The translations under genes were made by a program, and so were the position numbers. From contig JAYENL010000179.1 in assembly GCA_034722055.1 (NCBI GenBank), positions 1 through 32,033 of the forward strand: 32,033 bases of DNA, given 5' to 3'. Below the pieces are notes generated by a model. It worked only from the letters and a program-made list of their open reading frames with translations. It was not told the DNA's origin and ran no database searches. Position 1 is the first letter of the stretch. Each line of letters begins with the position of its first letter. The DNA is from Armatimonadota bacterium. GTDB taxonomy: Bacteria; Armatimonadota; Zipacnadia; Zipacnadales; UBA5352. Below are positions 1,752 to 30,103 of the stretch, in pieces.

Positions 1752-1802
1752 GACCTACAAGAGACGCCTACCACGCTCGGCGACATCAGGAACAGGCCTG
1801 GC

Positions 1803-2915: not shown

Positions 2916-3329
2916 CTAGAACTCGGGGACTGACGGTGGCGAGAGCCGCGCGCCGGGACACACGACGATCTGGCCGAGGTCGGAAGACTCGGCCTCAACC
3001 TCTATCTGCATTGCGCCACCAAGCATCGTGTAGCCGGCGCCATAGACATCCAGCCAGTGCTGCCCGACTGAGATGTTCTGGATCAGGAACTCGCCGTCAC
3101 TGCCAGTCGTGGCCGTCACGCTGCTGTCGATAGCGACTGTCGCGCCAGCGACTGGTTCGGCGTCAGGTACGGAGACAACTCGCCCCACCACGTCAGCAGT
3201 GCCCTCGGCAGGGCCTCCGCCGCTGGCTACGGTAGAGTCAGGGATGACGTCAACGCCAGCACAACCCGCAAGCCAGACAGTTATCGCGAGGATCACCAAG
3301 CAACTCGTACACCGTGCACCGTTGGCCAT
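2916..3329 (-). CDS. Lipoprotein with carboxypeptidase-regulatory-like (beta-sandwich) domain
   Basis: Signal peptide with lipobox LAGC; motif VVGRVV...EPVAGATVAI...ATTGSDGEF.I...G...L.V...GY; AAAGGA upstream of ATG. Confidence 0.75.
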   Translation of the reverse strand: MANGARCTSCLVILAITVWLAGCAGVDVIPDSTVASGGGPAEGTADVVGRVVSVPDAEPVAGATVAIDSSVTATTGSDGEFLIQNISVGQHWLDVYGAGYTMLGGAMQIEVEAESSDLGQIVVCPGARLSPPSVPEF

Positions 3330-3401
3330 CGCGTTTCAACATCCTTTCTGCTCCTGCATGATGTCGGGTGCAGATGGCGCCGGCGGTCTCTTGTCGTCGC
3401 C

Positions 3402-3410
3402 ATTATACCA
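3402..3410 (-). promoter_or_regulatory. Putative extended -10 promoter (TGGTATAAT) for the lipoprotein gene
   Basis: Minus strand reads ATGCTATGGTATAATGG, i.e. TGn plus perfect TATAAT, about 70 nt upstream of the start at 3329. Confidence 0.55.
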
Positions 3411-3823
3411 TAGCATGCGCCGCCTCTCATCTTGCCTCACAGTATCTTCACAGTACCTGCGGCCTGCCCCACAGCGAGGATCGAGCTACGTGTACTGAAG
3501 GTATCGGATCGAAGGGCCCTGCAATAGAGGTTCTCTCGTCAAGCGCAAGCGCTACCGGGGGAGCAGATCTCGTTCATCCTCGGCAAGGCAGAGGGCCGGT
3601 GATCGACACGCTCGAGTAGCTGGCGCCAACGCGCGACGTCGGACCGCATTCGCGGCGATACTCGTCCGGAGTTCACGGCGGGAGCGTTGCTCGAGGCATG
3701 AGGAGGAGGCAAACGCGTAGGGCGCGCACAGCTCGCCGAGTAGCTTACGCCACTGTGGGTCCCACAAGATGCTTCGCAGTTCTATCGAGGAAGGCGTAGT
3801 TGGCGAGCTTTGCGGGCTTGCTT

Positions 3824-5191
3824 TCAGCGCATTCGCACGGTCGTCAGGCCATGCGTCTGATCGCCGGTGGGAGCGTGGGCACAGACGCGGATGAGGTAGA
3901 GGCCGCCCGGCACCCGCGTGCCGCGGTCGCAGCGGCCATCCCAGGCCACCGTCTGCAGGCCCGCATCGCACTCCCGATCGGCGACGATTCGCTTGACGCT
4001 CCGCCCGGCGATGTTGAGCACGTCCACAGTCACTGTTCCGGCCGCCGAGAGCGTGAAGCTGATCTGCGCGCTATCGCCTGCAGGCTGTGCCGACACGCCC
4101 ATCACCTGCAGCATGTCCTCGCGCTCGCCGAGTTCGATCTCGAAGCGGCGCTGGCCCTCGCGGGCAGTATAGGTGTAGCCCGGCGCGTGGCGCAGGTCTA
4201 TCCGCTTGCCCGTCGCCAGGTCATTCAGCCACACGGCCATGTTTCCGGGGAGCTGCGAGCTGTCCACGATACGCAGGGAAACCTCCTCGTCTCTCGGCGA
4301 GTTGACCGCCAGCGTCCACGTATGGTCTCTGCCCTGCGGCACAAGCGATCGGGAGTAGCCGATGCCGTCCTGAACGTCCAGGTAGGCTCCGACCGCGCCA
4401 GGCCTCATGGGAGGCTTGGGCGTCTTCATGGCATTGTCGTCGGCAGTGGTGCCCAGCCACGTGCATACGTCCCTGCTGCTCTCGCTCTCCGCTGCAAGCT
4501 GCAGCCAGGTGCCCGGCGTGACGCTGCGGGACACATCGGTCAGGGACGCGCTCCCCGCTGACTCTGGCGGCGGTGGCGGAGTGAGCCGGAAGGTGGCACC
4601 GCCATGGTAGGTCGCGAGCGCCCAGAACGCATGACCGGCATAGGGCGTCTGGTGGCCGTCGTATGCATGCCCGTTCCACGAGTAGACGGGGGGGATGAAC
4701 CGGCCCTGGTTGTCCGGCACCAGGAACTCCAGGCCGATCTCGAACTCGAATGGATTCGCCAGCAGATTCCAGCCCTCCGCGATGGCGACCGAGGTGCTGG
4801 AGGGACCGTCCACAGGGATCTCCGCCGTCGTCTCCGTCCGGCTCAGCGCCCACAGGCCGTATCCCATGTACGCCGCCGCGGCCTCGTCACGACCGACCTC
4901 CCGGTACACGAAAGCTTCAGCGTCCCACCGGTAGAGGGCCAGCACGTCTGGTCCCAGCAGCTCTCCCAACGTCGCCTGCGGGTCGAGCGGCTCGCCGATG
5001 GAGATCATATTCCAGCCCGGAAGCAGACTCACGACCACGTCGCCGTCCAACTGATGTGGCCGAACAGCGTCTTGAGACGGAGCGGCCACAGTGCCGACCT
5101 CGCAGTGTGCTGCAGGCACCGCAACCGTTGAGGCAAACAGAAGCGAGCAGGCCATCAGGACGTGCCGATGTGGTGTATTTGCTGCACGCAT
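3824..5191 (-). CDS. Secreted protein consisting of signal peptide, two GWN repeats and a C-terminal FlgD-type Ig domain
   Basis: Start reassigned to ATG 5191 (GGAGG upstream; MRAANTPHRHVLMACSLLFASTVAVPAAHC signal). Repeats LLPGWNMIS and IAEGWNLLANPF. C-terminus ISFTLSAAGTVTVDVLNIAGRSVK...WDGRCDRGTRVPGGLYLIRV is FlgD_ig-like. Confidence 0.75.
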   Translation of the reverse strand: MRAANTPHRHVLMACSLLFASTVAVPAAHCEVGTVAAPSQDAVRPHQLDGDVVVSLLPGWNMISIGEPLDPQATLGELLGPDVLALYRWDAEAFVYREVGRDEAAAAYMGYGLWALSRTETTAEIPVDGPSSTSVAIAEGWNLLANPFEFEIGLEFLVPDNQGRFIPPVYSWNGHAYDGHQTPYAGHAFWALATYHGGATFRLTPPPPPESAGSASLTDVSRSVTPGTWLQLAAESESSRDVCTWLGTTADDNAMKTPKPPMRPGAVGAYLDVQDGIGYSRSLVPQGRDHTWTLAVNSPRDEEVSLRIVDSSQLPGNMAVWLNDLATGKRIDLRHAPGYTYTAREGQRRFEIELGEREDMLQVMGVSAQPAGDSAQISFTLSAAGTVTVDVLNIAGRSVKRIVADRECDAGLQTVAWDGRCDRGTRVPGGLYLIRVCAHAPTGDQTHGLTTVRMR

Positions 5192-5284
5192 GAACCATTC
5201 CTCCGTGGTGCGACCCCGCGTGTTCGCCCCGACAGGCTGCTTGCTGGTGCTGCGTGCCGGGGCTCCTGGCGCCGGGAACCGAGA

Positions 5285-5328
5285 AAGCCGGTGGGCCCGG
5301 GCGGCGCCTCCCCGAGGCCCACCGGCTT
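5285..5328 (-). terminator. Stem-loop after the pectate lyase-like gene (terminator-like)
   Basis: 13-bp inverted repeat AAGCCGGTGGGCC / GGCCCACCGGCTT about 20 nt after the stop at 5350; the minus strand ends in TTTCTC, a weak U-tract. Confidence 0.5.
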
Positions 5329-5349
5329 GATTCCCGTGAGCCGGCAGGT

Positions 5350-8300
5350 TCAGCGACGCACAGTCGTGGTCGTGATTGCGTGTGTCTGCTGCCCGTCGGC
5401 ACTGCGCGCTGTGATCTGGATAATGTAGCGGCCGTTCGCCACCTTCGTCCCGCGGTCGCTGCGCAGGTTCCACGACAGCGTGTTGGCCCCGCTCATGACG
5501 CTCTCCGCTCGAGCCAGGACTCGGATCGGGCGTCCCGCGATGTTCAGCACCCTCGCACTGACATCGCACTGCTTGGAGACGTTGTACTGCAGAGCCACCG
5601 CCTCCGGTCCCTGCGAGGCCGCCATTGCAGTGACGACGAGGCTCGCGTCGTCCTGCGGCACGACCTCGAGCTTGAAGCGCCTCTGGCCGCCGCTGTCCCC
5701 CGAGACATACCTGTAGCGACGCATGGTCCGAGCATAGACGCGCTTGTTGGCGTCGATATCGGTCAGATACACGCACATGTCATTCGGCACCTGGCTGAGG
5801 TCGGGCAGCCTGACGCTCACCTCAGCGTCGCACAGGTCAGTGGACACGACGAACTCCCAGCTCGCCGCCCCCACGCTGTTGCGTACGCACTGGGCCAGTT
5901 GCTGCCCATCCGCGCCGACGATGTACATGTCCACGCTCTCTGGAGCGGTGGGTGGATTGTAGATCTCAACCGGATCTGCGAGCATACTCGATGTGCCAAC
6001 GACCGTCGTGGTATCGCACCTGCCGCCGGCTTCGACCTCAATCGGCACCAGCCAGCCCCGGTCCCCGCCCACGGCGGACTGGGGAACGACCGCGCTGCTG
6101 GATGCAGCAGCGGTATCGGCGGACTGCGGCGGGTCCGGAGGGATGGGGTCTTCAGGCGGCGAGACCTCGAGCTTCGCCCGCCGGCCATGGTTATACATCC
6201 AGATGCCTTCCCATGGGAAGATGTCGTTCCGATCCACATTGGCCCCCGCGACGCTGGTGATGAGCAGGTAGTCACCGGCGTCGGCATCGTAGGCGAAGCC
6301 ATACGGATGCACGTGGGACGGCGCATTGCCCATGAGGTTCCCGAAGGGAAGGCCCGCCGCAAACATGTTCGCGACCATGTTCCATCCATGCTCGATTGTC
6401 AACGGGAAGAGCGCCCCGCTGCTGACTGGTACGCCGGGCACGCTCAGATCGCGTGCCGGCGACTTGAGGAAGAAGCCGCGTCCCGGCTGCACGGTCAGGA
6501 GGTCGCTGCTTCCGTCGGCGGCAAAGACGTATTTGTGCTGCTCCGGGTTCCACCGCGCAATCAGCTCAGTACCCCAGACGGTGGTCGGGTCGGTCTGCAG
6601 CGGCACGCACGGGACGCCGACGAAGCTGATTCCCTTTCGGAGACGATGCCGGAACACCTGGTGGGCCTTGAAATCCACGCCGGTCGCATCAGGCGGCACG
6701 GTCACTTTCTGGACTTGCGGCGTCACCACATGGCTGTCCTTGCTCGCGCTGATGGAGAGCTCTCCCGTCTGGACGACAGTCAGCGTGTACTGACCCTGGT
6801 CGTCGGTTAGGGCGGTCTGATCGCCGTCTGTGACCCCGACCCCGGGCACGGGCTCGTCGTTGGGATACAGGACGGTGCCCGACACAGTGTATGTCTTGCC
6901 AATGGTCACACTGGCCTCGCCCGTCTCGCCCGCGTCTGTTCCATCGCTGGGCGTGACGACCACACGCCACGTCTCGCCATCGCCGGTCAGGTCCGACGAC
7001 ACGGTGTCGCCCGTGAGGTCCTCCTGAAGCGTATCATCCCTGTACCAGGCGTATTCGTAGGTAACGGTGTCGTCGTCCGAGTCCGTGCTGCCCTCGACGC
7101 TCGCGACAAGGTCGTCCAAGGTGGTGGGTGAACCCGGAGTGATCGAGACCGTGGGGGCTGTTGGCGGGCTGTTCGCGATAGTGACCGACGCCTCGCCGGC
7201 ATCGCCGGTGGCGCTGCCATCCGACGGGGTGACAACCACCCGCCAGGTCTCGTCTCTCGCCGTCAGATCAGACGACACCGTGTCGCCGGTGACCTCGTCC
7301 TGCAGCTCGTCGTTCTTGTACCAGGCGTAGGTGAATGTCACGTCATCCCCGTCAGGATCGGTGCTTTCAGCCGTGACCACCAGGTCGTCTGATGTGGTGG
7401 GCGCGTCAGGGCTGATCGAAACCTCCGGCGCGGGTGGTGGGCTGTTATCTGAGTTGACGGTGATCGTGACCGTGTCCGGCACGGAGTTCAGCGATCCGTC
7501 ATTGACGACCAGGGTCACAACCGTCTCGCCGGAGGGAAGGCTGACTGTCGGGTTGACGCCGCTCGCTTCGTGGTCGTTCCCCTCCGCGTCCTGCCACGTC
7601 CAGCGGTAGGTGAGGGGATCGCCATCAGCATCGGAGGAACCCGAGCCATCCAGTTCCACCTCAGCCTCGGCGGAGCTGCCTGCACTGACCTCCTGGTCGG
7701 AGCCCGCATCGGCAGTGGGCTGATGGTTGCCCGGGGGCCCCTCTGGGACCAGCGAGTTGAGGTAGACCTCGACGTTGGTGTAGTCCGGATCAAGATCGTA
7801 CCGGGGCCCGTCGGACTCATCATTGGGATCCAGCCCGTGCTCCGTCTCCCAACTGTCCGGCATCCCATCATGGTCGCTGTCATCGGGCGGCGTGCCGTTC
7901 TCATACGTCAGCGTGGCCCAGTTTGCCGCCGCCATTGCCCGCTGACTGTTCTGGCCTGTGGGATAGCCTCCACGGTTGGTGCCGTCCCGGACCTCTGCCA
8001 CTATGCGCGTGTCAACTACATCACGCACGGGTACCGTAGCTCCAGCGTTCCCCAAGACAAGATCGTATGTCGTCTGGGGGTCATGCGTGGTCACGGGCGG
8101 CGTATCAAAGGGTACGAGAGACCTGTACATATTCTCATCGGCTATGTCCCAACCGTCACGCACTTCATGCCAGATAGGTTCGCCTTGAGCCACCCTGGGG
8201 CCGTAGATGTCGTCGATGTACAGCCTGAGCATTTCCGCAGGACGCAAGCACACGCAGTATCTGTGGAGGCGGCTCGTCTTGCCGACCTTCCAGTAGTTGC

Positions 8301-9144
8301 CGACAATGTTCACATGCACGTTCCCCAACAGGGCGCATCCATCATTCTGGACGTCGTAGACAACATTGCTCCGAATGTCGCCGACAGAGACGTCCCCTCC
8401 GCCCTGATTAAAGCGATCCTGAAAGACGGGATTCCGCATACCGTTATGCGCAAACAGATTGTGATGGATGGAGCTTTGGTGGGCGTACCACGCCAGTAAC
8501 GCTTTCATCGATTCGCTCAAAACGCACCACTGTACGGTCACATGTCTCGCCGGAACCGGATCAATCGAGTCCTTAGGAAGTGTTCTATGATAGCCTACAA
8601 GTTCATCTCCAGCCCAGGAGAAGGAGCAGTGATCCACGATGTTGTTGTACCCCTTCATTTCAAGGCAATCCCCCATACCCACTTCGCCTTGGCGTATTCG
8701 CAGATAGCGTATGATGCAGTTGCTGCGAACAGCTAACCCGCCCTTTATCACGATTCCGTCGCCTGGTGCTGTCTGACCTGCGATGGTGATGTCGGATTCA
8801 TAAGGGCCCCAGTTCTTGCGACTGCTATTCAGTAGAGGCTCGTTCAGCTCAATGACCCCTCCCACACGGAAGACAATGATGCGCGGACCAGAGACCTCCT
8901 CCAAGGCATAGCGGAGCGTGCCAGGCTCACCGGGTACCGGATCGTCGAGGCGCGTCACTTCGACTACCTGTCCACCCCTTCCGCCAGTTGCCTCAGCACC
9001 AAAGCCTTCCGCGCCGGGGAAGGCGGGCACCGCCGCAACTGGATTAGCGGCAATCAAGAGAGAGAGCAGGCACACGCTGACGCAGACAGTCCGTGGGAGG
9101 GTATGGCCAAATCCTGTGTGCGGAGTATCTTGCGTGGAAATCAT
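5350..9144 (-). CDS. Secreted multidomain pectate-lyase-like (PL1-type beta-helix) protein with PKD and Ig-like repeats and C-terminal FlgD-type Ig domain
   Basis: Start reassigned to ATG 9144 (AGGAGG upstream). AFPGAEGFGAEATGGRGG, GTLRYAL..GPRIIVFRVGG, TIAGQTAPGDG, IVDHCSFSWAGDE, HHNLFAHNGMRNP and DSDHDGMPDSWE are typical of this lyase clade. PKD-like NHQPTADAGSDQ...LDGSGSSDADGDPLTYRW follows. Confidence 0.85.
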   Translation of the reverse strand: MISTQDTPHTGFGHTLPRTVCVSVCLLSLLIAANPVAAVPAFPGAEGFGAEATGGRGGQVVEVTRLDDPVPGEPGTLRYALEEVSGPRIIVFRVGGVIELNEPLLNSSRKNWGPYESDITIAGQTAPGDGIVIKGGLAVRSNCIIRYLRIRQGEVGMGDCLEMKGYNNIVDHCSFSWAGDELVGYHRTLPKDSIDPVPARHVTVQWCVLSESMKALLAWYAHQSSIHHNLFAHNGMRNPVFQDRFNQGGGDVSVGDIRSNVVYDVQNDGCALLGNVHVNIVGNYWKVGKTSRLHRYCVCLRPAEMLRLYIDDIYGPRVAQGEPIWHEVRDGWDIADENMYRSLVPFDTPPVTTHDPQTTYDLVLGNAGATVPVRDVVDTRIVAEVRDGTNRGGYPTGQNSQRAMAAANWATLTYENGTPPDDSDHDGMPDSWETEHGLDPNDESDGPRYDLDPDYTNVEVYLNSLVPEGPPGNHQPTADAGSDQEVSAGSSAEAEVELDGSGSSDADGDPLTYRWTWQDAEGNDHEASGVNPTVSLPSGETVVTLVVNDGSLNSVPDTVTITVNSDNSPPPAPEVSISPDAPTTSDDLVVTAESTDPDGDDVTFTYAWYKNDELQDEVTGDTVSSDLTARDETWRVVVTPSDGSATGDAGEASVTIANSPPTAPTVSITPGSPTTLDDLVASVEGSTDSDDDTVTYEYAWYRDDTLQEDLTGDTVSSDLTGDGETWRVVVTPSDGTDAGETGEASVTIGKTYTVSGTVLYPNDEPVPGVGVTDGDQTALTDDQGQYTLTVVQTGELSISASKDSHVVTPQVQKVTVPPDATGVDFKAHQVFRHRLRKGISFVGVPCVPLQTDPTTVWGTELIARWNPEQHKYVFAADGSSDLLTVQPGRGFFLKSPARDLSVPGVPVSSGALFPLTIEHGWNMVANMFAAGLPFGNLMGNAPSHVHPYGFAYDADAGDYLLITSVAGANVDRNDIFPWEGIWMYNHGRRAKLEVSPPEDPIPPDPPQSADTAAASSSAVVPQSAVGGDRGWLVPIEVEAGGRCDTTTVVGTSSMLADPVEIYNPPTAPESVDMYIVGADGQQLAQCVRNSVGAASWEFVVSTDLCDAEVSVRLPDLSQVPNDMCVYLTDIDANKRVYARTMRRYRYVSGDSGGQRRFKLEVVPQDDASLVVTAMAASQGPEAVALQYNVSKQCDVSARVLNIAGRPIRVLARAESVMSGANTLSWNLRSDRGTKVANGRYIIQITARSADGQQTHAITTTTVRR
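6898..7446 (-). repeat. Intragenic tandem duplication of a ~91-aa Ig-like domain
   Basis: NSPPPAPEVSISPDAPTTSDDL...TGDTVSSDLTARDETWRVVVTPSDG...GEASVTI and NSPPTAPTVSITPGSPTTLDDL...TGDTVSSDLTGDGETWRVVVTPSDG...GEASVTI. Boundaries approximate. Confidence 0.85.
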
Positions 9145-10250
9145 CTTCGCAGTTCCTCCTGTAACCTTGCCGGCGGCTGGCTCTCGGAGTTCGCTCTCGG
9201 TCGGGAGCAATGAGTCCAAAGGACGTCGCCCGCTGTGCGCTTTCCGATGCGCCACGATTTGTTCGGTTTTCCTTGAGGCTGGATTGAGTATACCCTCGGC
9301 GAACACCATCACCCAGGAACAGCACCACGTCAAACGCAAGACCAACGACGCAACGCTGCATACCCAACTGCCCGCGAACTGACCACCGCTCATCCGAGGT
9401 GCAATCGGCAGATGCAGCAAACCAGGCCCCAGCAAGTACCGGAGGACCGTCCGGCGTTTGGGAGACTCTGAGTGCAGCGGCGCGCAGGAGCCTGGGTATT
9501 GGGTCCCAGGTGGGCGCCGTGATTGGTGATCGTCCTGGGCTCAACACCTGCGTGGGGCCTCCTGCGGACTTACCGGAAGATCGGGGCAGTTGTGGTTGGC
9601 GGGCGGGCGCATTCGCCAAACGCTTCGACGCTGGACGCACGCAAGGGGTGCACAACTGTTCGCACGCCGAGGGGGCGACGGACGCACAGATGCTGCGCCG
9701 TACGGAGGGATGCCTCGGAGGCTATGGCGAGCAGGCATCTTCTGCAGACGTCGAGGGTGAGCGACGCACCAATATTGGGCCAGAGGAGCTCGGTCCGCGA
9801 TCAATGGCGAAAGCCGGGGCGTTCCGGCGGGTGAAGGGCAGCACTGTCACCGTATCTCCGTTCTCATGGCTGCATCGTCCTCTGCCGAGATGCTTCGTCT
9901 GCAAGCTCTATTGCGCAATGACCTGCTCTTTCCGCCTATTCCCAGTGACAGCGACCGCTAAACATGGGGGGCCAGTCCTTAAGCCCCGCGCCAGGTGAGC
10001 AGCGGCGGTCTCCTCTGGCGCTGATGAAGATAATCGCTGTTATGAGTGCGACCATGCCTCGAGGGCCGCATACCCGATTGTGTCTGGGGACGCAAGGGGG
10101 TTCCAGATGGTCCAGCGGTCTTCCTGCGACCGATACTGTGGTCTCACATCCTGTCGTCTCATGTGCGGATTCCTGGGCTGGCTGATCCATCGCATTGCGG
10201 TGTACCATGACCGTCTCTTGCTCCATTACTCGGGATCGCTGCCGCGTCGC

Positions 10251-10290
10251 AAACACCGAAAGCCGCCGCATGCTCACGACAGCGGCGGGC
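10251..10290 (-). terminator. Putative intrinsic terminator of tRNA-Ser
   Basis: CCGCCGC/GCGGCGG stem (10263-10288) followed on the minus strand by CTTTCGGTGTTT, about 20 nt after the tRNA CCA. Confidence 0.5.
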
Positions 10291-10310
10291 CATGGGAGGC
10301 GTGATCTCGG

Positions 10311-10401
10311 TGGCGGAGGGGGAGGGATTCGAACCCCCGGTGCCCGTCAAGAGCACAACGGTTTTCAAGACCGTCACCTTAAGCCGCTCGGTCACCCCTC
10401 C
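10311..10401 (-). tRNA. tRNA-Ser (anticodon TGA)
   Basis: Reverse complement GGAGGGGTGACCGAGCGGCTTAAGGTGACGGTCTTGAAAACCGTTGTGCTCTTGACGGGCACCGGGGGTTCGAATCCCTCCCCCTCCGCCA: 7-bp acceptor stem, anticodon loop CTTGAAA, long variable arm, GTTCGAAT T-loop, G discriminator, encoded CCA. Confidence 0.97.
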
Positions 10402-10600: not shown

Positions 10601-13057
10601 TCAGTCCAGGCTCAGTTCGATGACGCGGGCGGCGGCGTGGTCGTAGACGTCGTAGCAGGTGAACAGCAGCACCTGCGCATCCTCCGCAAGGCGCCTGATG
10701 ATCCCCAGGGCCTCCTGGCGGCGGGTCGCATCGAAGTTGACCATGGGGTCATCGAGGAGGATGGGCGGACGCTCATCCGGCCACACCAGCGAGGTCAGGG
10801 CCAGCCGTGCCGCCAGGTAGACCTGCTCGCGTGTGGCGCAACTCAGCTCGGAATCGATGTCCACCTCCCCGCCCTTCTCCGAGGAGTGGATTGCCGGCTC
10901 GAGCGTCGAGCGGTCGAAGGTGACCTCCCCGTAGCGCCCGCAGGTAAGCTCAGACAAGAGGTCCCCGGTGCGCGGCTCCAGCACATCGATGGCGACGCTG
11001 ACGGTCTCGCGGTGAGCCCGGTCAAGCAGCTCGCGCGTCAGCGCGAGCGCGTCCCGCTGCTCCTCCAGGCGCTCCAGCCTGCGACGTGCGGCGACCAGTT
11101 GCTCCTCCAACGACCGCAGCCGCTCCGGGTCGGCCTCCGGATGCTCGGCGGCGCGACGGGCCTCGTCCAGCTCCTCGTCCAGCGCAGATGCCTGCTCCTG
11201 AAGCTCCGCGATCCGTGACAGCAGGGCCTGGTACTCTTCCGGCGTCAGGTCGGTCTCGGCAAGCTCCGGGGCTTCGAGCGCCTCCGCTGTGCCCATGCGG
11301 TCCGCATTGAGGGCCGAGAAATCGTCCTCCAGCTCCTTGAGCGTGCTGTCGCCGAGCAGACCCTTCAGCTCCGAGCGCGCCGACTCCAGCTCATCGCGGG
11401 CGTTGGCGACGCGCTCTACCTGCTCCAAGAGCTCCTCGGAGCTCTGCGCGTCGGCGCGCTTGAGGGCCACCTGCAACTGCGTCTCCAGCCCCTCGATGCG
11501 CTCGCGGTGCCTCTCCGCGGAATCGATGGCGCTCTCCGCCTGGCCCTGCACCCGCGCGTGGACCTCGACGGCGTCCTCCACGGCCTTCCGCGCATCGCGG
11601 AGGTGGCAGCGAAGGGCGTCCACGTCCCGTGCGCCGGCGTCCTCAAGCGCGGCGGCGAGCTCCTCGCGGGTGGTGCTGAGATGCCGCTGCAAGTCCTCGA
11701 GGCGGGTCCGCGCCTCCTCGTGTCGTCGGCGGGCCTCAGGCACAGACATACGCGGGCCGCCGAGGGAGGCCCAGAGGAAGATGCCAGCGCCCGCCAGGGC
11801 GACGAGCGCCAGCCAGGGGCTGACCAGCGCACCCAGGACCGCGCCGGCCACCACGAGGACGACCGCCAGGAGGTAGCGCAGGCGCTGCCGCCCGGAGGTC
11901 CGCTCGACGGACGCGCGCTGCTCCGCGGCCGCCTCGACCTCCTCGGCGAGGACGCCGCATTCAGTCTCGGTCGCGGCGACCTCGCGCTGGAGGTCCTCGG
12001 CGCGGTCGAGCAGGGACTCGTCGGGGACGTGCTCGCGAGCCGCGACCAGTCGCTGCTCGGCCTGCTCGGCGTCCTCAGCCAGCCCCTTCGCCTCCTCCTC
12101 GGCTGTCTCGGCAGCACGCGCGGCCTCGTCCAGGTCGCGGACCAGCTCCCGGGCCTCCTGGCCCCGCTCCGGGGAGATGTCGGGAAGCTCCTCCAGCCGC
12201 TGTTCCAGCCGGCTAATGCGCTGCTGCAGCTCGCGGGCCTGGCGGCTGCGCTTCTCAAGCTCGCCGCAGCGCCTGGTGAGATCGGCAAGCTCCTCCTCCA
12301 GCTCTCGGCGGCGCTGCACGCGCTCCTGCAGGTGCCGGCGCTCCTCAAGCTCGCGCTCGACGTCCTTGCGCCGGTCGCGTAGTTGCTCCAGGCGCTCCGC
12401 GGCGTCCTGGGCGGCCGACACGATGGGCCGCAGGTGGGCGACCTGGGCCTCCAGGTCGTCGATGCGGCTCATGGTGGAGGCAATGGGGCCGAGGTGCTTG
12501 GCGGGTCTCGACACGCCGCGGTTGATGTCCTCAAGCGCATCATCGAGCTCACCGATGACGCTCTGCGCGCCGGCTTCCGCCCCCGGGCCGGCCAGACGCT
12601 GCTGGAGGAGCTCGCTGACGCGCTCCCCGCCGTCCAGGCGAGCGAACTCCTGCTGGCGGAGGCAGGCCGTGGTCTCATAGACCTCTCGCGACCATGGCTG
12701 CAGCAGCTCCGAGAGGCGCTCCCGGACCCGGCCCTCATCGGTGAGGGCATCTCCATCCATGCACAGCTCGATGCCCTGGGACTCGAAGTCGCGGGTCAGC
12801 ATCAGGCGGCGGCCGGCCGCCTCAAGCTCGCCCTCCAGCACGAACTGCCGCTGGCAGTCCCAGCTCGTGCACGCCAGGAACTGGGAGTCGCGGGTGTCCA
12901 CCTTCTTCTCCGCGAACAGCAGTCGCACGATGGCCTCGCGCATGGTGGACTTGCCGGACTCGTTGGGCCCACGGATGACATTGAGGCCGGGCGCGAACTC
13001 CCAGGAGGCGTCGCGGAAGCATCTGAAGCGCTGCAAACGCAGTCGGGTGAGGATCAT
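10601..13057 (-). CDS. SbcC/Rad50-like (YhaN-type) SMC-family ATPase with long coiled coils
   Basis: Walker A GPNESGKST after LRLQRFRCF...FAPGLNVI; signature-like LSCATREQVYLAARL; Walker B ILLDDPMVNFD; central hydrophobic hairpin. ATGA overlap with the upstream nuclease gene. Confidence 0.88.
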   Translation of the reverse strand: MILTRLRLQRFRCFRDASWEFAPGLNVIRGPNESGKSTMREAIVRLLFAEKKVDTRDSQFLACTSWDCQRQFVLEGELEAAGRRLMLTRDFESQGIELCMDGDALTDEGRVRERLSELLQPWSREVYETTACLRQQEFARLDGGERVSELLQQRLAGPGAEAGAQSVIGELDDALEDINRGVSRPAKHLGPIASTMSRIDDLEAQVAHLRPIVSAAQDAAERLEQLRDRRKDVERELEERRHLQERVQRRRELEEELADLTRRCGELEKRSRQARELQQRISRLEQRLEELPDISPERGQEARELVRDLDEAARAAETAEEEAKGLAEDAEQAEQRLVAAREHVPDESLLDRAEDLQREVAATETECGVLAEEVEAAAEQRASVERTSGRQRLRYLLAVVLVVAGAVLGALVSPWLALVALAGAGIFLWASLGGPRMSVPEARRRHEEARTRLEDLQRHLSTTREELAAALEDAGARDVDALRCHLRDARKAVEDAVEVHARVQGQAESAIDSAERHRERIEGLETQLQVALKRADAQSSEELLEQVERVANARDELESARSELKGLLGDSTLKELEDDFSALNADRMGTAEALEAPELAETDLTPEEYQALLSRIAELQEQASALDEELDEARRAAEHPEADPERLRSLEEQLVAARRRLERLEEQRDALALTRELLDRAHRETVSVAIDVLEPRTGDLLSELTCGRYGEVTFDRSTLEPAIHSSEKGGEVDIDSELSCATREQVYLAARLALTSLVWPDERPPILLDDPMVNFDATRRQEALGIIRRLAEDAQVLLFTCYDVYDHAAARVIELSLD

Positions 13058-14187
13058 CGCAGGCCCCCCTCGCCGCGCAGCATGGCCACGCCGATCTGCA
13101 GCGCGCGCTCGGCCACGCGCCGCTCGCGCTCGTCGCCGGCCGCCTGGATCCTCTCGCGAGCCAGCTCCACGAAGCGCCCCAGGGCCAGCCCGTCGGCGGC
13201 GACGCCCTCCAGGTCCTCGATGGCCGGATGCGTGTCATCGACGATACGAAGGGCGAAGAACTCGTCCGCGAGGCGCTCCTGGGCGGCCTGCACGTCGATG
13301 AGGACTCCGGGCGCGGCGAGCCCCCCGACCGTCACATGCAGGAGCAGGCCATCGTTGGCGTGCTCGCGGATGCGTGTGACCAGGTCCTCAGTGCCGCCCA
13401 GCTCGCCGGCGTCGATGGCGACCTGCTCGCCGCGCAACGCGCCGACAGTGACCCGCTCCACGCGCGTGCGGCCCTCACCGAGCGTGACAACGGCCACGGC
13501 GCCAGCGTCGCGCTGCGCGAAGCCGTCGATCTCCGGGCTGCCGGGATTGATGGCCACGACGTCCCCGGCGGTGTGGTCGGTCCAGGAGTGCCAGTGTCCC
13601 AGCGCGAGGTAGTCCATGCCCGTGGCGGCGATCTCCTCGGCGTCGAACATGCTGGAGTCCGCCACGTCGCCCCGCTCCATCGAGCCATGCGCCACGCCCA
13701 CGTTCAGCGGCAGGTCCGCCTCCGGCCGGAGGCCGCTGAGCGGCCGCTGCCGCTCGCGGCCGCAGAGGTGAGCACAGCCGTGGAGGGCGAGGTCGAGCTG
13801 CGGCAGATGGATGGTGACGGCCTCAGGGCCGCACAACGCGTGCACCGAATCCCCAAGCGCTCGCATCCGCGGGGAGTCCCACAAGGCGCCCTCGCGCCAG
13901 CAGTCATGGGTGCCTGGCAGCAGCGCGACGGCCACGGGGGGCGATGCCTCCGTGAGGCGGCGGAGCTGGCCGAGGGCGAAGTCGATGGTGGCGGCATCCG
14001 GCCGGGCCTGGTTGAAGAGATCGCCGGCCACGATGAGCAGATGTGCATCGCGCTCCAGGCAGAGGTCGATGACGCGCGTGAAGGCCTCCCGGGTGGCCCT
14101 GCGAAGCGCGGCGGCGCGCTCGCCGAGCTCGGCGTTCGGCGCGTCGAGGTGGACGTCGGCGGTGTGAACGATCCTGACGGTAGACAT
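13054..14187 (-). CDS. SbcD/Mre11-like (YhaO-type) DNA repair exonuclease, metallophosphoesterase
   Basis: Start reassigned to ATG 14187. Five phosphoesterase motifs: HTADVHL, VAGDLF, PGTHD, VAHG, YLALGHWH; also NPGSPE. Confidence 0.88.
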   Translation of the reverse strand: MSTVRIVHTADVHLDAPNAELGERAAALRRATREAFTRVIDLCLERDAHLLIVAGDLFNQARPDAATIDFALGQLRRLTEASPPVAVALLPGTHDCWREGALWDSPRMRALGDSVHALCGPEAVTIHLPQLDLALHGCAHLCGRERQRPLSGLRPEADLPLNVGVAHGSMERGDVADSSMFDAEEIAATGMDYLALGHWHSWTDHTAGDVVAINPGSPEIDGFAQRDAGAVAVVTLGEGRTRVERVTVGALRGEQVAIDAGELGGTEDLVTRIREHANDGLLLHVTVGGLAAPGVLIDVQAAQERLADEFFALRIVDDTHPAIEDLEGVAADGLALGRFVELARERIQAAGDERERRVAERALQIGVAMLRGEGGLR

Positions 14188-14277
14188 GCGTATCCCCGTG
14201 CGCGTATCTGTGTGTGCGTGTGAGCCTTCCCGCTGAGGATGGAACATTCCTCCCGCGTGGTCCGGGGGAAAGCCGTG

Positions 14278-14315
14278 TTGGGCCGGCCTCCTCGGGGTGC
14301 TTCGCACCCGTCGTC
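14278..14315. repeat. REP-like hairpin repeat, type A copy 1
   Basis: TTGGGCCGGCCTCCTCGGGGTGCTTCGCACCCGTCGTC matches 31996-32033 at 36/38 nt; stem GGGTGC-TTC-GCACCC. Confidence 0.8.
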
Positions 14316-16136: not shown

Positions 16137-16940
16137 CTACGCCGGAGTGGGGGAGAGGACCGCGTACTGCACCCGGCTGCCGCCGCCACCCTCGACGCGC
16201 TCGATGCCGGGCAAGTCCAGAGCCTCGTCACTGCGCCGGCACTTGACCACCACGCAGCGCCTCGCCACGCGCCTGGCCTCCTGATACGCCTCCTCGCCGA
16301 TGGGCTGATGCACACCGAGCCGCCGCAACGGCTGCATGGCCTGGGAGCGCCCGATGGTCTGCTCGAAGAACGGGTCGAAGTAGACCACGTCGAAGCCGGC
16401 CTCGGGGAACGTGGGCAGCACCTCACGGCAGTCGCCGTGGCGTGCGTCGATCCGCCGCATGGCCTCCTGCACGCCCGGGCCCTCGATCTCGTAGCTCTGC
16501 AGGCCCGAGATGGTCAGTGCGCCCACCAGCGGATCCGCCTCGTACCCGACCACGCGCCCCTCCTCGCCGACCACCCAGGAGGCGACGGTGGCGTCGGTGG
16601 CGCGGCCGAGCGTACAGTCCAGGACGCTGTCGCCGGCCTGGAGGCCCATGGCGCTGACCATGGGGTCGCTCATGCCGTCGATGATGTTGCGGATGCGGGT
16701 GCGGGCCATGCTGGGGTGGAAGAAGTACTCCACGTCCTCGGACGGGATCACCAGGCCGACGCGCTCGGCGGTCACCGTGAGCGCGGCCTCGACGCCCTCC
16801 TCGCGGCAGAGGCTCGCGAGGCTGCGGCCGGCTCGCGGAACGAAGGGGACCTGCAGGCGCTGAGCCCACCCGACGGCGCGCGCGGCAAGCTCGGGATCGG
16901 ACCTCCGGGAGGTGGTGACGACGTAGGCGAGGTCAGGCAT
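16137..16940 (-). CDS. Class I SAM-dependent methyltransferase (RsmJ/YhiQ-like)
   Basis: FFHPSMA..RI; motif I VLDCTLGRATDA; motif IV FDVVYFDPFF; RVARRCVVVK. Start overlaps the HEPN stop (ATGCCTGA). Confidence 0.8.
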   Translation of the reverse strand: MPDLAYVVTTSRRSDPELAARAVGWAQRLQVPFVPRAGRSLASLCREEGVEAALTVTAERVGLVIPSEDVEYFFHPSMARTRIRNIIDGMSDPMVSAMGLQAGDSVLDCTLGRATDATVASWVVGEEGRVVGYEADPLVGALTISGLQSYEIEGPGVQEAMRRIDARHGDCREVLPTFPEAGFDVVYFDPFFEQTIGRSQAMQPLRRLGVHQPIGEEAYQEARRVARRCVVVKCRRSDEALDLPGIERVEGGGGSRVQYAVLSPTPA

Positions 16941-16943
16941 CGG
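16875..16943 (-). repeat. Direct repeat R1a (methyltransferase 5' end), partner of 17798-17866
   Basis: 66/69 nt identical by manual alignment. Confidence 0.92.
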
Positions 16944-17391
16944 GAGCGCGAGGCTCCTCTGCCCCAGCGTCTGCGTCGGCCTCGAGGAACTCCAAGATGC
17001 GTGGCTCGAAGATCGCCCAGGCGCGATCCGTCAACGCCAGCAGTCGCTCGCTCGTCTCCTCGTCAAACGGCTCGCCGGTGTCAGGGTAGCGGGCGTCAAC
17101 AGCGTAAGCGCCGAGCTCGTCGGCGAATGCGGCCTCGGCCGCGAGGTGTGGATCGACTTGCACTACATAGGTCTCGAGCAACCGAGCGATGTCGCGGATC
17201 TTGGGGAAGCGAACGCCATGAACAACGAGGCAGGTCTTGATGACCTTCTCGATGGCCTGCTGACAGAGGAAGACCACGTTATCGTACGCACGGGGGCCGG
17301 TGGCGTGAAGCACCCGGGCATTGGCGAGATCCAACTCGGCGCGGGAGTACCACTCCTGGACCTGCTCGCGTAGCGGATCACCCTCGCTCAT
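16933..17391 (-). CDS. HEPN domain protein (cassette 1)
   Basis: EWYSRAELDLANAR, FLCQQAIEKVIK, FPKIRDIARL, YAVDARYPD; overlaps the upstream MNT gene. Confidence 0.85.
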   Translation of the reverse strand: MSEGDPLREQVQEWYSRAELDLANARVLHATGPRAYDNVVFLCQQAIEKVIKTCLVVHGVRFPKIRDIARLLETYVVQVDPHLAAEAAFADELGAYAVDARYPDTGEPFDEETSERLLALTDRAWAIFEPRILEFLEADADAGAEEPRAPDA

Positions 17392-17725
17392 ACATCAGCC
17401 GCCCGTCGTGTGCGACCATATTGGCGAGACTGCCGATGACCTTCCGTCTGCGCTCGAACTGGTCCCTGCCGAGCACGAGGATGTCCATCGGGAACGGGCG
17501 CGGGCGGCAGAGAGCGCTCAACCGTACCATCTCCTGGCGGCGATCCGGCTCTCCCTCGTAGACCGCCAGCAGGTCCACGTCGCTGTCAGGGCCGGCGGTG
17601 CCGGTGGCGTGTGAGCCGAACAGCCACACCTGGATCACGCCCGGCTGCTCGCCGATCTTCCGGGCGATCTCCCGGATCTGCTCCTTCGTGACCTCGGATT
17701 GCGTTGTGTCGCTGTGATCGCTCAT
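17378..17725 (-). CDS. Minimal nucleotidyltransferase (MNT) (cassette 1)
   Basis: 115 aa from ATG 17725; LFGSHATGTAGPDSDVDLL fits GSx10DxD; third Asp in PMDILV. Confidence 0.88.
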   Translation of the reverse strand: MSDHSDTTQSEVTKEQIREIARKIGEQPGVIQVWLFGSHATGTAGPDSDVDLLAVYEGEPDRRQEMVRLSALCRPRPFPMDILVLGRDQFERRRKVIGSLANMVAHDGRLMYERG

Positions 17726-17729
17726 GGGA
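17544..17729 (-). repeat. Direct repeat R2a (MNT 5' half), partner of 18428-18613
   Basis: 184/186 nt identical by manual alignment. Confidence 0.93.
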
Positions 17730-17741
17730 GCCACCCGTCCG

Positions 17742-17770
17742 ATTGTACCTCCGGCGCAGGGGCGCGTCAA
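17742..17770 (-). promoter_or_regulatory. Sigma70-type promoter of MNT-HEPN cassette 1
   Basis: TTGACG-17 nt-TACAAT; the same boxes and spacing recur before cassette 2. Confidence 0.75.
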
Positions 17771-17797
17771 CGAACGCGGGGCTTCGGGCCGCCCGCT

Positions 17798-17866
17798 GGC
17801 GCGCGCGGCAAGCTCAGGGTCGGACCTGCGGGAGGTGGTGACGACGTAGGCGAGGTCAGGCATCGG
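17798..17866 (-). pseudogene. Duplicated 5' fragment (22 codons) of the methyltransferase gene (repeat R1b)
   Basis: Encodes MPDLAYVVTTSRRSDPELAARA, identical to the N-terminus of 16137..16940; similarity then stops abruptly. Confidence 0.85.
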
Positions 17867-18275
17867 CAGAACCGCAGTCGGGTAGGGCCTCGAGGACGAG
17901 CGAGCGCACGGCCCCGGCGATTCCGACCAGGCGAGCCGCGTCCTCGCAAGAGACTGTGAGGTCGGGGGTCGGATACCTCGCGGCGACGGAGTACCGGGAC
18001 AACGCCCGGGCGTCATCGGCCGCGTCGGCCAGATCCTGGTCAACCGTGGCCACCAGGTTGATCAGATGCGTGATGTCGTGAGTCGCCGGAAAGGAGACGC
18101 CGTGGTAGAAGAGATAGGCCTTCAGATACTTCTCCCCAGCCTGTTGAGCGAGAAAGGCGATGTTCTCATAGTGCTCAGTCATCTCCAGAAGCACGCGGGC
18201 GCAGTCAAGGTCTTCGGAGGCCCTCCGCAGCCACTCCGCCAACTCGTCGAACTGCGCCTCATCCGGCCCTGTCAT
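17856..18275 (-). CDS. HEPN domain protein (cassette 2)
   Basis: 139 aa from ATG 18275; EWLRRASEDLDCAR, FLAQQAGEKYLKAYL, FPATHDITHL, YSVAARYP. Confidence 0.87.
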   Translation of the reverse strand: MTGPDEAQFDELAEWLRRASEDLDCARVLLEMTEHYENIAFLAQQAGEKYLKAYLFYHGVSFPATHDITHLINLVATVDQDLADAADDARALSRYSVAARYPTPDLTVSCEDAARLVGIAGAVRSLVLEALPDCGSADA

Positions 18276-18609
18276 GGATGACCCTGCCCTCTCGGCTAAC
18301 CTCATATGCAAGCGTACCAATGACGTCCTGCCAGCTCTCGAATTCCTCCTCGCCCATGACCAAGATATCCATGCTGAACATCCTGCGTGAGAACAGATCA
18401 TCAAGCTCGGCCATCTTGTGAAACTTGTCCGGCTCTCCCTCGTAGATCGCCAGCAGGTCCACGTCGCTGTCAGGGCCGGCGGTGCCGGTGGCGTGTGAGC
18501 CGAACAGCCACACCTGGATCACGCCCGGCTGCTCGCCGATCTTCCGGGCGATCTCCCGGATCTGCTCCTTCGTAACCTCGGATTGCGTTGTGTCGCTGTG
18601 ATCGCTCAT
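18259..18609 (-). CDS. Minimal nucleotidyltransferase (MNT) (cassette 2)
   Basis: 116 aa from ATG 18609; GSx10DxD motif; SMDILV; EVSREGRVI. Confidence 0.88.
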   Translation of the reverse strand: MSDHSDTTQSEVTKEQIREIARKIGEQPGVIQVWLFGSHATGTAGPDSDVDLLAIYEGEPDKFHKMAELDDLFSRRMFSMDILVMGEEEFESWQDVIGTLAYEVSREGRVIHDRAG

Positions 18610-18613
18610 GGGA
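18428..18613 (-). repeat. Direct repeat R2b (MNT 5' half)
   Basis: 184/186 nt identical to 17544-17729. Confidence 0.93.
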
Positions 18614-18625
18614 AGTACGGCTGTG

Positions 18626-18654
18626 ATTGTACCGCGGGGGCCAATGCGCGTCAA
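18626..18654 (-). promoter_or_regulatory. Sigma70-type promoter of MNT-HEPN cassette 2
   Basis: TTGACG-17 nt-TACAAT, 16 nt upstream of the ATG, as in cassette 1. Confidence 0.75.
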
Positions 18655-18685: not shown

Positions 18686-18808
18686 CGTGTTGGGGCGGGC
18701 TCCTGGAGACGCTTGCGCGTCTCTCCCCCCCGGCCACAGCCCCTCCGACGACGGCTGCGGGCCTTTTGTCGCGCGTCGGGCGTAACCACGCCCGACCTCC
18801 GTACGGCA
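18686..18808. repeat. Composite REP-like repeat (diverged type A plus type B)
   Basis: CGTGTTGGGGCGGGCTCCTG plus hairpin GAGACGC-TTGC-GCGTCTC; then 18756-18808 with hairpin GTCGGGCGT-AACC-ACGCCCGAC plus CTCCGTACGGCA, 44/53 identical to 30051-30103. Confidence 0.7.
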
Positions 18809-18882
18809 CGACGACGAAGGCCAAGCCTTCCCGGGACCGCGAGAGCGCAGCCAGGGCACGGCGATGAGCCGATGCTGCTCCC

Positions 18883-20226
18883 CTACCCCGGCTGCTCATC
18901 GCTGTCGGGCTGGAACTGGAAGGCGTAGAGCTTCGCGGCGTGCATCACGAAGCGCAGGCGCACGGGTCGCCCCGCGAGGGCGCTGAGGTCGGGGTCGCCG
19001 TCGCGCCAGGTGGCGAGCTTGCGGATGAAGTTGCCGCGGATCAGGTCTGCGTGCTCCAGCGCGAAGCCCTCTATCGGCTGACCGTCCGCGGCCTGGACCT
19101 CCACCCGACAGTCCCCGGCGGCTGAGCAGTCGATGTTCAGCTCCAGGTGGGCGCCCTCGAAGACGATGGGCGGCGTGATGAGCTCCCCGCCCTCGTAGTC
19201 AGCGTCCGCGGACACGAAGCCGTCGAGTCGCTGCACCACCATGCCGTTGAAGCGCGGGTTCCCCTCCGCGCCGGCCCAATGCCCATGCGTCTGAGGATAG
19301 CCGGCGTACCACTGGTGGAGCTGATCCCCATTCCTCATCAGGCCCCGCGAGATGTAGATGCAGGCGCCGTCCGGGTCCTCGCCGCTGATGCCGAGGTCGA
19401 TGTAGGGTCCGCGGAAGCGCCGCCAGGTGACGCCGTCGCGGCTGGTGGCGAGCTGCACGTCCACCAGGCCGTCGTTGGCCAGCTCGCCCTGGGGCGGGGG
19501 CGGGAAGTGCCGGTAGAGGACCGGGAAGGCCAGGTAGACCCTGTCGGCCCAGGGGTAGCGGAAGATGCCATGGTCGTAGAAGTCGCACTCGCCCGGGTCT
19601 CGCTCATCGGTGGCGAGGACCGTCTGGAAGCCGGGGCCGGGGGCCGGGAGTCTGTCCTGGCCCCACATGAAGACGCGGGCATTCTGCTCCGGGATGGGCC
19701 AGGGCTGCAGCGGATCCTCCACCTCCAGGCGGCCGACCGAGCGCATCATCCTGTCGGTGCCATCGCCCGCGGGGATCCACTGCCGGAAGTGCGCCACGTA
19801 GATGTCCTTGTGTGGGTCATAGAACATGTTGTTCTCGCCATCGGGCCAGAAGGGGAAGACGCGCTGGGGCACCTCCGTCCAGTTGGTGCGATCCGCGGAG
19901 TACTGGATGTAGAGTCCGCCGGTCTCGGTGTCCTTCATCTCGCCCTTCAGGAGCGTGCGCTTGTAGCGCTGCTCGGGCGGGGCCTTCGGGTCGTAGAAGA
20001 CCGCGCCGAAGTCCACGCGCGGGTTGTCCTGCCACATCGGGCCCACGTCCACGCGCTCGCGTTTCACCGGCGGGTTCATCGTCAGCGTCACGCCGCTGCT
20101 CTCGGCGATGAACAGGTCGTCGATGAAGAGCTGCTTGCGTGAGCCGACGTCGATGGGCTCCTGGGCCAGACCCGGCTGTCCCGCCAGGATCGCCAGGAGC
20201 GCTGCGATCCCGCTGTGACGCATCAT
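18883..20226 (-). CDS. Secreted uncharacterised protein, likely glycoside-hydrolase-like beta-propeller plus C-terminal beta-sandwich
   Basis: Signal peptide; IDVGSRKQLFIDD; Asp-box LATSRDGVTW; RLDGFVS..A...GELIT; LSALAGRPVRLRFVM..AKLYAFQF. GGAGG upstream. Confidence 0.65.
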   Translation of the reverse strand: MMRHSGIAALLAILAGQPGLAQEPIDVGSRKQLFIDDLFIAESSGVTLTMNPPVKRERVDVGPMWQDNPRVDFGAVFYDPKAPPEQRYKRTLLKGEMKDTETGGLYIQYSADRTNWTEVPQRVFPFWPDGENNMFYDPHKDIYVAHFRQWIPAGDGTDRMMRSVGRLEVEDPLQPWPIPEQNARVFMWGQDRLPAPGPGFQTVLATDERDPGECDFYDHGIFRYPWADRVYLAFPVLYRHFPPPPQGELANDGLVDVQLATSRDGVTWRRFRGPYIDLGISGEDPDGACIYISRGLMRNGDQLHQWYAGYPQTHGHWAGAEGNPRFNGMVVQRLDGFVSADADYEGGELITPPIVFEGAHLELNIDCSAAGDCRVEVQAADGQPIEGFALEHADLIRGNFIRKLATWRDGDPDLSALAGRPVRLRFVMHAAKLYAFQFQPDSDEQPG

Positions 20227-29920: not shown

Positions 29921-30050
29921 GGGGCTCCTCCGCCCTTCCTCGGCGCGGCGCCAAACTGGACACGCCACTCGCCGACCGGATCTCGATCGCGATGTGCTGT
30001 GGTTGCATTTCCACCCGTCTGCCGCCACGCCCTTCCGTGTGTGGAACGGA

Positions 30051-30103
30051 TGCGGGCCTTTCTGCCCGCGTCGGGCGTGGGCACGCCCGGCTTCCGTACG
30101 GCA
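30051..30103. repeat. REP-like hairpin repeat, type B
   Basis: 44/53 identical to 18756-18808; stem CGGGCGT/ACGCCCG preserved while the loop differs. Confidence 0.72.

Follow-up and report, generated by a model that had tools for sequence, protein, structure and literature searches.

The stretch analyzed here (the window, 32,033 nucleotides [nt]) is the whole of contig C179 (JAYENL010000179.1) of G000, a 6.1-Mb metagenome-assembled genome of an Armatimonadota bacterium; close homologues of its nucleotidyltransferases carry the source labels candidate division WS1 or Armatimonadota. On the minus strand, directly upstream of a methyltransferase gene, it carries in tandem two gene pairs, each encoding a minimal nucleotidyltransferase (MNT) and a HEPN protein. 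Few two-gene modules are commoner in archaea and many bacteria than class II MNT-HEPN pairs. Along the minus strand, the order is P1, MNT1, HEPN1, a methyltransferase 5' fragment, a junction, P2, MNT2, HEPN2, and the full methyltransferase gene, with the following parts.

18626..18654, minus strand: promoter-like site P1 (TTGACG, 17 nt, TACAAT), sigma-70-like.
18428..18613, minus strand: constant border A, copy 1 (4 nt of leader plus MNT codons 1 to 61), 184/186 identical to copy 2.
18259..18609, minus strand: MNT1, 116 amino acids (aa), minimal nucleotidyltransferase with GSx10DxD and the invariant D81; PF01909 (E 5e-12), PF18765.
17867..18427, minus strand: variable core 1, the MNT1 C-half plus HEPN1; groups weakly with the G011 core (85/82).
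17856..18275, minus strand: HEPN1, 139 aa, HEPN-T, conserved His66 and RYP kept; PF05168 (E 1.5e-26).
17798..17866, minus strand: constant border B, copy 1, the methyltransferase 5' fragment (22 codons), with 3 differences from the full gene, all synonymous.
17771..17797, minus strand: unique junction, with a junction contig in runs X1, X2, and X3.
17742..17770, minus strand: promoter-like site P2 (TTGACG-17-TACAAT), with spacer and leader unlike those of P1.
17544..17729, minus strand: constant border A, copy 2, compared with copy 1.
17378..17725, minus strand: MNT2, 115 aa, intact catalytic motif; PF01909 (E 1.8e-12).
16944..17543, minus strand: variable core 2, the MNT2 C-half plus HEPN2; its class is common to G005, G012, and G015 (100/100).
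16933..17391, minus strand: HEPN2, 152 aa, HEPN-T, Arg at residue 66 (codon 17196-17194); PF05168 (E 4.7e-21).
16875..16943, minus strand: constant border B, copy 2, the 5' end of the full methyltransferase gene, compared with copy 1.
16137..16940, minus strand: S-adenosylmethionine-dependent methyltransferase, 267 aa, conserved across the order; PF04445; its start overlaps the HEPN2 stop.

The original prediction, made from the DNA letters alone, was that near-identical borders enclose a swapped core, and its counts proved exact. The MNT 5' halves (17544-17729 versus 18428-18613) match at 184 of 186 positions, differing at 17563 and 17690, and the methyltransferase 5' ends (16875-16943 versus 17798-17866) at 66 of 69, differing at 16893, 16896, and 16905. 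Directly past the codons for EGEPD, identity drops from 10/10 to 3-6/10 per 10-nt bin, and both MNT C-half peptides that had been quoted are present in the translations. Between the borders, the MNT C-halves share 54% of nucleotides and 43% of amino acids, and the HEPN genes 50% and 36%. A search for further copies of the 186-nt MNT block, which had been suggested as a check, found none in the genome, the best further match being 59 nt at 78%. The identity of border A extends beyond what the protein would demand. The identical block covers an 11-codon N-terminal extension that is different in all relatives, and identity at 4-fold sites of the MNT 5' half is 0.96 within G000 and 0.80-0.89 within the three-unit array of its relative G005, against 0.46-0.79 for the remaining pairs from genera g1, g3, and g5, the degenerate G011 being set aside. 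Over codons 12-60, DNA identity is 99% within G000 and 90-95% within G005, compared with 84-90% between genomes of g1, g3, and g5 (G011 aside). Protein constraint therefore fails to explain the identity of border A, because synonymous sites and a lineage-specific N-terminal extension match too.

Whether the tandem could be two strain haplotypes joined by the assembler was checked through the depth of contigs from four runs (X1-X4), brine metagenomes of one study, possibly the source study. In X1, depth is 46.2 in the downstream flank, 53.5 in core 2, 45.8 at the junction, 51.3 in core 1, and 53.6 in the upstream flank, and the repeated MNT 5' block stands at 98.1, twice the flanks. The same regions have depths of 16.3, 21, 16.3, 16.7, and 16.6 in X2 (MNT block 27.6) and 60.5, 54.3, 42.1, 55.9, and 47.2 in X3 (MNT block 68.9), while X4, at about 7x, has a hole at 17614-18066. 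Because both cores and the junction with P2 (17700-17858), a unique sequence seen in three runs, are at flank depth, two alternative haplotypes are disfavored. No contig piece in X1-X4 runs across the whole array; as far as the contigs tell, the data fit a real two-unit tandem and not merged haplotypes. Run X3 also holds a third leader allele, with differences at 17731, 17736, 17739, and 17740 in the P2 region.

By domain content, the window pairs are class II MNT-HEPN (PF01909 plus PF05168). Both MNTs match PF01909 (E 5e-12 and about 2e-12) with GSx10DxD at residues 37-51; both HEPNs match PF05168 at 93 and 76 bits (cutoff 22) and have no RX4HXY. HEPN residues R100-Y101-P102 are invariant in 14/14 aligned sequences and supply the conserved C-terminal Tyr expected of class II. 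The published account of HEPN-T describes, in the part available, an alternative histidine and an insert between helices 2 and 3 (PMC3710099). His66, matched to that description by sequence only, is present in HEPN1 and in 13/14 aligned HEPNs of the locus, with Arg in HEPN2, where the codon has the same letters in contigs of X1-X4. HEPN2 is therefore likely to be impaired, weakened, or inactive through His66 to Arg. Type VII HepT/MntA (class I) was considered and rejected, since the HEPNs are PF05168 and not DUF86/PF08780, and lack RX4HXY; scores for NF047752 were 36-39 against a cutoff of 60, and no NCBIfam HepT model matched the HEPNs. PADLOC matched the MNTs to PDC-S09 alone and gave nothing for the HEPNs, and a PDB sequence search returned uncharacterized HEPN-T and MNT structures only, with no class II complex. 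Toxin (HEPN) and antitoxin (MNT) roles are putative, carried over from class I. Each of the five window proteins forms a single-member cluster. We take the methyltransferase to be RsmJ/YhiQ-like. Two sites of the form TTGACG-17-TACAAT were found, versus 0.2 +/- 0.4 in shuffled sequence, and the same two hexamers stand upstream of this locus in 9 relatives.

The arrangement upstream of the methyltransferase gene is not fixed among relatives, where 0-3 units occur. The gene was assembled in 15 of 17 genomes of the family; in G001, of the same genus as G000, the locus ends inside it. Ten of the 15 have MNT-HEPN directly upstream (1-3 units, with three in G005) and five have none; in G016 the promoter remains without a cassette, and in G010 a HEPN tail is left. 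At 14 loci from other families of the order, no MNT-HEPN pair lies within 1.5 kb. The HEPNs of G013, G014, and G011 lack a stop and read in frame into the methyltransferase, giving open frames of 401-457 aa (L036:5289-6500, L037:1530-2729 on the minus strand, and L041:6608-7837), a fusion that may have arisen twice, the HEPNs being of two classes. Where the window junction (17771..17797) meets the methyltransferase gene, the two have a few bases in common; by eye, the junction looks like the hairpin found ahead of the promoter in G009, G012, G015, and G005, and the upstream context of P1 differs. In the G005 array, the repeated downstream edge is the HEPN tail plus intergenic DNA and not a methyltransferase fragment, and because the junctions differ in this way, the G000 and G005 tandems arose apart. 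The proposal that the methyltransferase 5' end serves as a homology arm thus holds for the window array, but not for G005 or for a triple array on contig C130 of G000, both of which repeat the HEPN 3' tail and intergenic DNA. The upstream neighbor of the locus is also variable. In the window, a 447-aa protein (18883-20226, minus strand) stands where the usual upstream neighbor sits; it has many paralogues in the family and no match in Pfam, NCBIfam, or PADLOC.

The histories of the MNT N-halves and of the cores conflict. In N-half trees, calculated both with three long rows (G006, G008, and G011) and without them, sequences group by genome (G000 pair, 100/99), whereas the core tree groups by class, across genera. 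Class A unites unit 2 of G000, units 1 and 2 of G005, G012, and G015 (100/100); class B unites unit 3 of G005, G009, G013, G014, and G017 (99/96); and a weak class C joins unit 1 of G000 to G011 (85/82). Approximately unbiased (AU) tests, run for the N-halves on the 11-row set, rejected a clade of the two G000 cores (p 2e-5), of the three G005 cores, and of the G013 and G017 cores (p 2e-5), although the methyltransferases of the last two are sisters at 89% identity; for the N-halves they rejected class A (p 2e-5) and class B (p 0.016) as clades. The C130 locus behaves alike: N-halves go by genome (G000, 100/99) and cores do not, the first-position cores of G000 and G015 form no clade, and a P-class core takes first place in G000 but second in G015. 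The expectation that N-half and core trees would be incongruent was thereby borne out at two loci. By their sequences, the cores are old, divergent classes found across the family. Same-class cores share 35-60% aa in HEPN versus 63-89% aa in the methyltransferase; in a fixed HEPN-MNT pair found in 16 genomes, which served as a control, HEPN identity stays at 61-96%, versus 24-59% at the methyltransferase-upstream locus.

Database proteins give the same picture. A protein search scored on the N-half yielded 37 proteins among 63 candidates, of which 7 (truncated, frameshifted, deleted, or partial) were removed, leaving 30. Their mean identity is 90% over residues 12-60, 38% over 61-79, and 50% over 80-114. 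With thresholds set by eye, five classes can be told apart in each variable segment, and the N-terminal tag MSRS is paired with four of them. Protein P0016 (G013) is a chimera, its class A middle helix being joined to a class B C-end and HEPN, and in P0025 an in-frame fusion links an MNT N-half with a HEPN tail. Joint movement of the MNT C-half and HEPN as one module is accordingly upheld by the cross-genus core classes but breached by P0016, which mixes helix and C-end classes. P0013 and P0021, which differ in core class, have in common a rare N-half substitution and the same longest-contig size (9638) and are likely another tandem. Covariation with HEPN at the methyltransferase-upstream locus is stronger for the MNT C-end (rho 0.69) than for the middle helix (0.10), which fits the report that the C-terminal helix alpha4 of MntA (residues 98-113) carries much of HepT binding (PMC7641770, in the part available); at a HEPN-first locus, the values are 0.45 for the middle helix and 0.26 for the C-end. 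The middle helix (residues 61-79) had been a candidate specificity element, and covariation did not uphold it; the G013 chimera is also contrary.

Comparable arrays recur in the family. PF05168 genes occur in 18/18 genomes, 1-14 in each, and 14 of 25 adjacent same-strand MNT pairs, in 7 genomes and at 6 loci, have a homogenized border, defined as a tract of at least 80 nt at 90% identity or more at the unit period. G000 itself has four such arrays (C179, C130, C324, and C4). In MNT-first arrays, the tract ends just past the DxD strand, in four MNT subfamilies, while the constant tract of HEPN-first arrays is the last 83-92 nt of the MNT. The constant part is thus the outer edge of the unit and not always the catalytic half, and the view of the catalytic N-half as the constant arm survives for MNT-first arrays but not for HEPN-then-MNT arrays. 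At G000:C130 60.3-62.5 kb, three MNT-HEPN units with HEPNs of another subfamily form an array in which the MNT 5' halves, like the HEPN 3' tails, are nearly identical; what repeats at the downstream edge is the HEPN 3' tail together with intergenic DNA. HEPN-first arrays were seen at G000:C4 4.4-5.5 kb, L046, L050, and L052, where the MNT 3' 90 nt are 91-100% identical both within a genome and between genomes of different genera; this tract could hide a DNA or RNA signal.

Beyond these arrays, G000:C130 (about 25.6-26.3 kb) and 15 other genomes have the fixed HEPN-MNT pair, its MNT with DLN replacing DxD. The GC content at third codon positions of the fixed HEPN is 0.93 in G000 versus 0.76-0.83 in the other 7 HEPNs detected there, and variable units are often stacked upstream of the pair; judged on sequence, it is likely domesticated and perhaps noncatalytic. 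G000:C323 (14.5-17.3 kb) has a two-unit array without homogenized borders, with a 94.6% identical copy (L049) in G001, another species of the genus, versus 83% at another locus. The array adjoins a DNA-methylase-like gene, integrase genes lie on the contig, and it is likely mobile-element cargo. Scans of metagenome and genome contigs with an MNT alignment gave, among the matches listed, distant MNTs only (31-46% identity) and no alleles at strain level; of 160 distant loci among those matches, 5 have tandem MNTs and one (L073) clearly has the 5'-half pattern. This contig, from an unrelated metagenome, carries two MNT-HEPN units at 25-1535 with a 177-nt MNT 5' tract at 90%, and the border pattern may also exist outside the family of G000.

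The pattern is real and recurrent, and duplication plus drift does not explain it, as had been argued from the window alone and as the AU tests, the near-identical synonymous sites, and the closeness of the cores to those of other genera now establish. A simple recent duplication, in which purifying selection holds the catalytic half while the remainder evolves fast, could draw on the 84-96% protein identity of the N-half between genera. It is hard to credit, because synonymous sites, the lineage-specific N-terminal extension, and the noncoding fragment are near-identical too, because the two cores resemble those of other genera more than they resemble one another, and because the AU tests contradict it. 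An assembly artefact joining two strain haplotypes head to tail is just as improbable. The genome is metagenome assembled, from one study, without a contig or read across the whole array, and repeats of 38 and 126-166 nt collapse in run contigs; against this, cores and junction have full flank depth and the repeat about 1.3-2 times that depth in three runs, the sequence of the junction, which has a promoter of its own, is unique, one X3 contig runs from core 1 into the methyltransferase fragment, and the pattern recurs in other genomes. A site-specific recombinase encoded elsewhere in the genome, with the borders as its sites, would account for breakpoints clustering just past the DxD strand in six arrays and four MNT subfamilies, and the genome does have 22 PF00589 matches. 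As originally noted, no recombinase is visible nearby: none of the 22 tyrosine recombinase matches lies on C179, C130, C324, or C4 (serine recombinases were not searched for). Borders at different loci are unrelated coding sequences with no common recombination site seen among them, and tract ends vary by tens of bases; we give this explanation very little weight.

An old multi-unit array, inherited vertically, would also leave diverged paralogous cores between like borders, if conversion or unequal crossover within each genome kept the borders alike while lineages lost units. It predicts the same tree conflict, and same-class cores are as divergent as the methyltransferase or more (HEPN 35-60% versus 63-89% aa). 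In three genomes, the order of units at the HEPN-first locus can be derived from a single ancestral order through losses, and concerted evolution by conversion is documented for prokaryotes in the available part of PMC6053082. However, this account requires an ancestor with at least five units at several loci, where most genomes now hold one, the differing junctions give the G000 and G005 tandems separate origins, and the P-class core changes position between G000 and G015. A functionless 69-nt gene fragment at 96% identity further points to a recent join. We rate this explanation as doubtful, though it retains a minority share of the probability because no near-identical donor core was found.

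On balance, we favor exchange, accretion, and deletion of cores by recombinase-free homologous recombination at the borders, with the window tandem as a recent meeting of two alleles. Ordinary RecA-type recombination at the conserved borders, which have enough length and likeness for it, would allow core replacement as well as the stacking or loss of a unit, and conversion or crossover there would keep the edges of stacked units alike; the cores would be too divergent for internal recombination, except at two conserved MNT strands. In the window, two single-unit alleles of the methyltransferase-upstream locus probably met recently in one chromosome; they could have been joined once by homology and once by a short illegitimate event lying 69-80 nt inside the methyltransferase gene; alternatively, a circle could have integrated through the MNT 5' half. 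Several traces are consistent with such a process. The HEPN1 stop is overlapped by the start of the methyltransferase fragment exactly as in a terminal unit, and the three differences in the fragment are synonymous (a weak sign; p about 0.06 by hand estimate). A co-occurring relative (84-86% identical; 2.8x in X1 and 14.2x in X3) lacks 624 nt, its MNT 5' half running directly into a HEPN tail and the start of the methyltransferase, and has three leader letters in common with the P2 variant of X3. Core-less alleles thus exist in G016, G010, this relative, and P0025. RecA and ComEC are present in the genome.

Several observations weigh against recombination at the borders as the general explanation. 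The N-half is strongly conserved between genera (84-90% nt), so constraint contributes, and 11 of the 25 adjacent pairs have no homogenized tract (6 involve the fixed pair, and 2 are the C323 array and its G001 copy). In four HEPN-then-MNT pairs, the tract is 91-99% identical between genomes versus 92-100% within, and the 3' tract of HEPN-first arrays may therefore be conserved rather than converted. MutS is present, which would limit recombination between diverged species. Exchange between strains is what we infer, yet no near-identical core is found in another genome at the locus (best HEPN, 60% aa), among compared genomes none of which is a second member of the G000 species. No MNT segment tracks HEPN at every locus, and linkage alone could give much of the covariation.

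By extension from class I, each MNT may adenylylate the conserved Tyr of its own HEPN, which would be an RNA-directed toxin using the alternative His, and matched pairs would have to travel together. Selection of several matched pairs for extra antitoxin coverage or target range would let the classes persist, and unit 2 may act mainly as a spare antitoxin if HEPN2 has lost its His. More tentatively, we speculate that these arrays could reflect a family-wide, recombinase-free diversification, in which a constant enzyme chassis takes interchangeable specificity cores at six or more chromosomal sites, each core being a matched antitoxin surface and toxin that passes between strains and stacks as an immunity repertoire; we consider this possible and no better than that.

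Elsewhere in the window, a dispersed palindromic repeat with dozens of genome copies lies at 18690-18815, just upstream of P1, and at 30046-30103, and a second intergenic repeat of 49 nt at 14267-14315 and 31985-32033 (the contig end). A tRNA-Ser gene at 10311-10401 adjoins 10 kb (1-10401) of lower GC content (0.56-0.69), within which a 1396-codon open frame runs at 5353-9540 on the minus strand; the stretch is possibly an island. At 10601-14178 (minus strand) lies a pair of genes for a metallophosphoesterase and an SMC-like ATPase, presumably SbcD/SbcC-like.

At least five core classes, all attached to one near-invariant catalytic half, can be drawn from these loci, along with natural chimeras, deletions, and a His-less HEPN. 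They form a natural panel for asking whether HEPN-T is toxic, whether it is modified by MNT, and which MNT segment sets the partner. The arrays also show how MNT-HEPN pairs, with no mobile element involved, can increase in number and variety within a genome through recombination at their own edges. In the literature searched, mostly without subscription papers and not covering the supplements of PMC7641770 and PMC3710099 (class II lists), which possibly bear on novelty, we found no description of border-homogenized MNT-HEPN arrays. The parts are known, and so is the kind of mechanism; their combination was not encountered in published work.

Of the known systems, class II HEPN/MNT (HEPN-T, COG2250/COG1708) agrees in domains, MNT-first order, gene overlap, GSx10DxD, conserved Tyr, and lack of RX4HXY, as far as the available parts of PMC7641770 and PMC3710099 describe it; the window adds tandem units with homogenized borders and reassorted cores. 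The first of these sources states, in the part available, that class II keeps the conserved tyrosine and had no biochemical study by 2020, and the second mentions clusters of several MNT and HEPN genes for crenarchaea. Recent gain and loss of whole MNT-HEPN modules is reported in the accessible portion of PMC2701414, and the portion of PMC13000451 at hand treats fused class I-type proteins, with "class II" and "tandem" absent from that text. Type VII HepT/MntA has a like MNT catalytic motif and, by analogy, likely the same Tyr-adenylylation logic, but differs in that the window HEPNs are PF05168 without RX4HXY and NF047752 stays below its cutoff. An integron or other site-specific cassette array would differ in having a linked recombinase and a shared site, whereas the four contigs show no linked tyrosine recombinase (serine recombinases not having been searched for) and no shared site was seen. 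With prokaryotic concerted evolution by conversion (PMC6053082, available part), the arrays have in common that paralogues are closer than orthologues, at synonymous sites too, which was found for the MNT 5' half and not for the 3' tract of HEPN-first arrays; the portion seen of that source covers whole-gene homogenization with no mention of "toxin," whereas here only borders are homogenized and unit number and content change.

The arrays work like polymorphic toxin loci (MafB/MafI, CdiA, and Rhs) but are not a member of that group. As in the available account of those loci (PMC4287609), a constant 5' part ends in a sharp boundary at a conserved motif, the variable 3' part travels with the next gene, the sites on the chromosome are fixed, and recombination is inferred by genome comparison. 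In contrast, the split gene of the window is the putative antitoxin, so that roles are reversed and internal; the proteins are single-domain, of 115-152 aa, with no secretion or trafficking domain in Pfam; and each unit comprises a complete gene pair, in the window with a promoter for each, and there are no orphan cassettes lacking a 5' end. If the diversification speculated on above is true, it would be polymorphic-toxin logic turned inward on a toxin-antitoxin pair.

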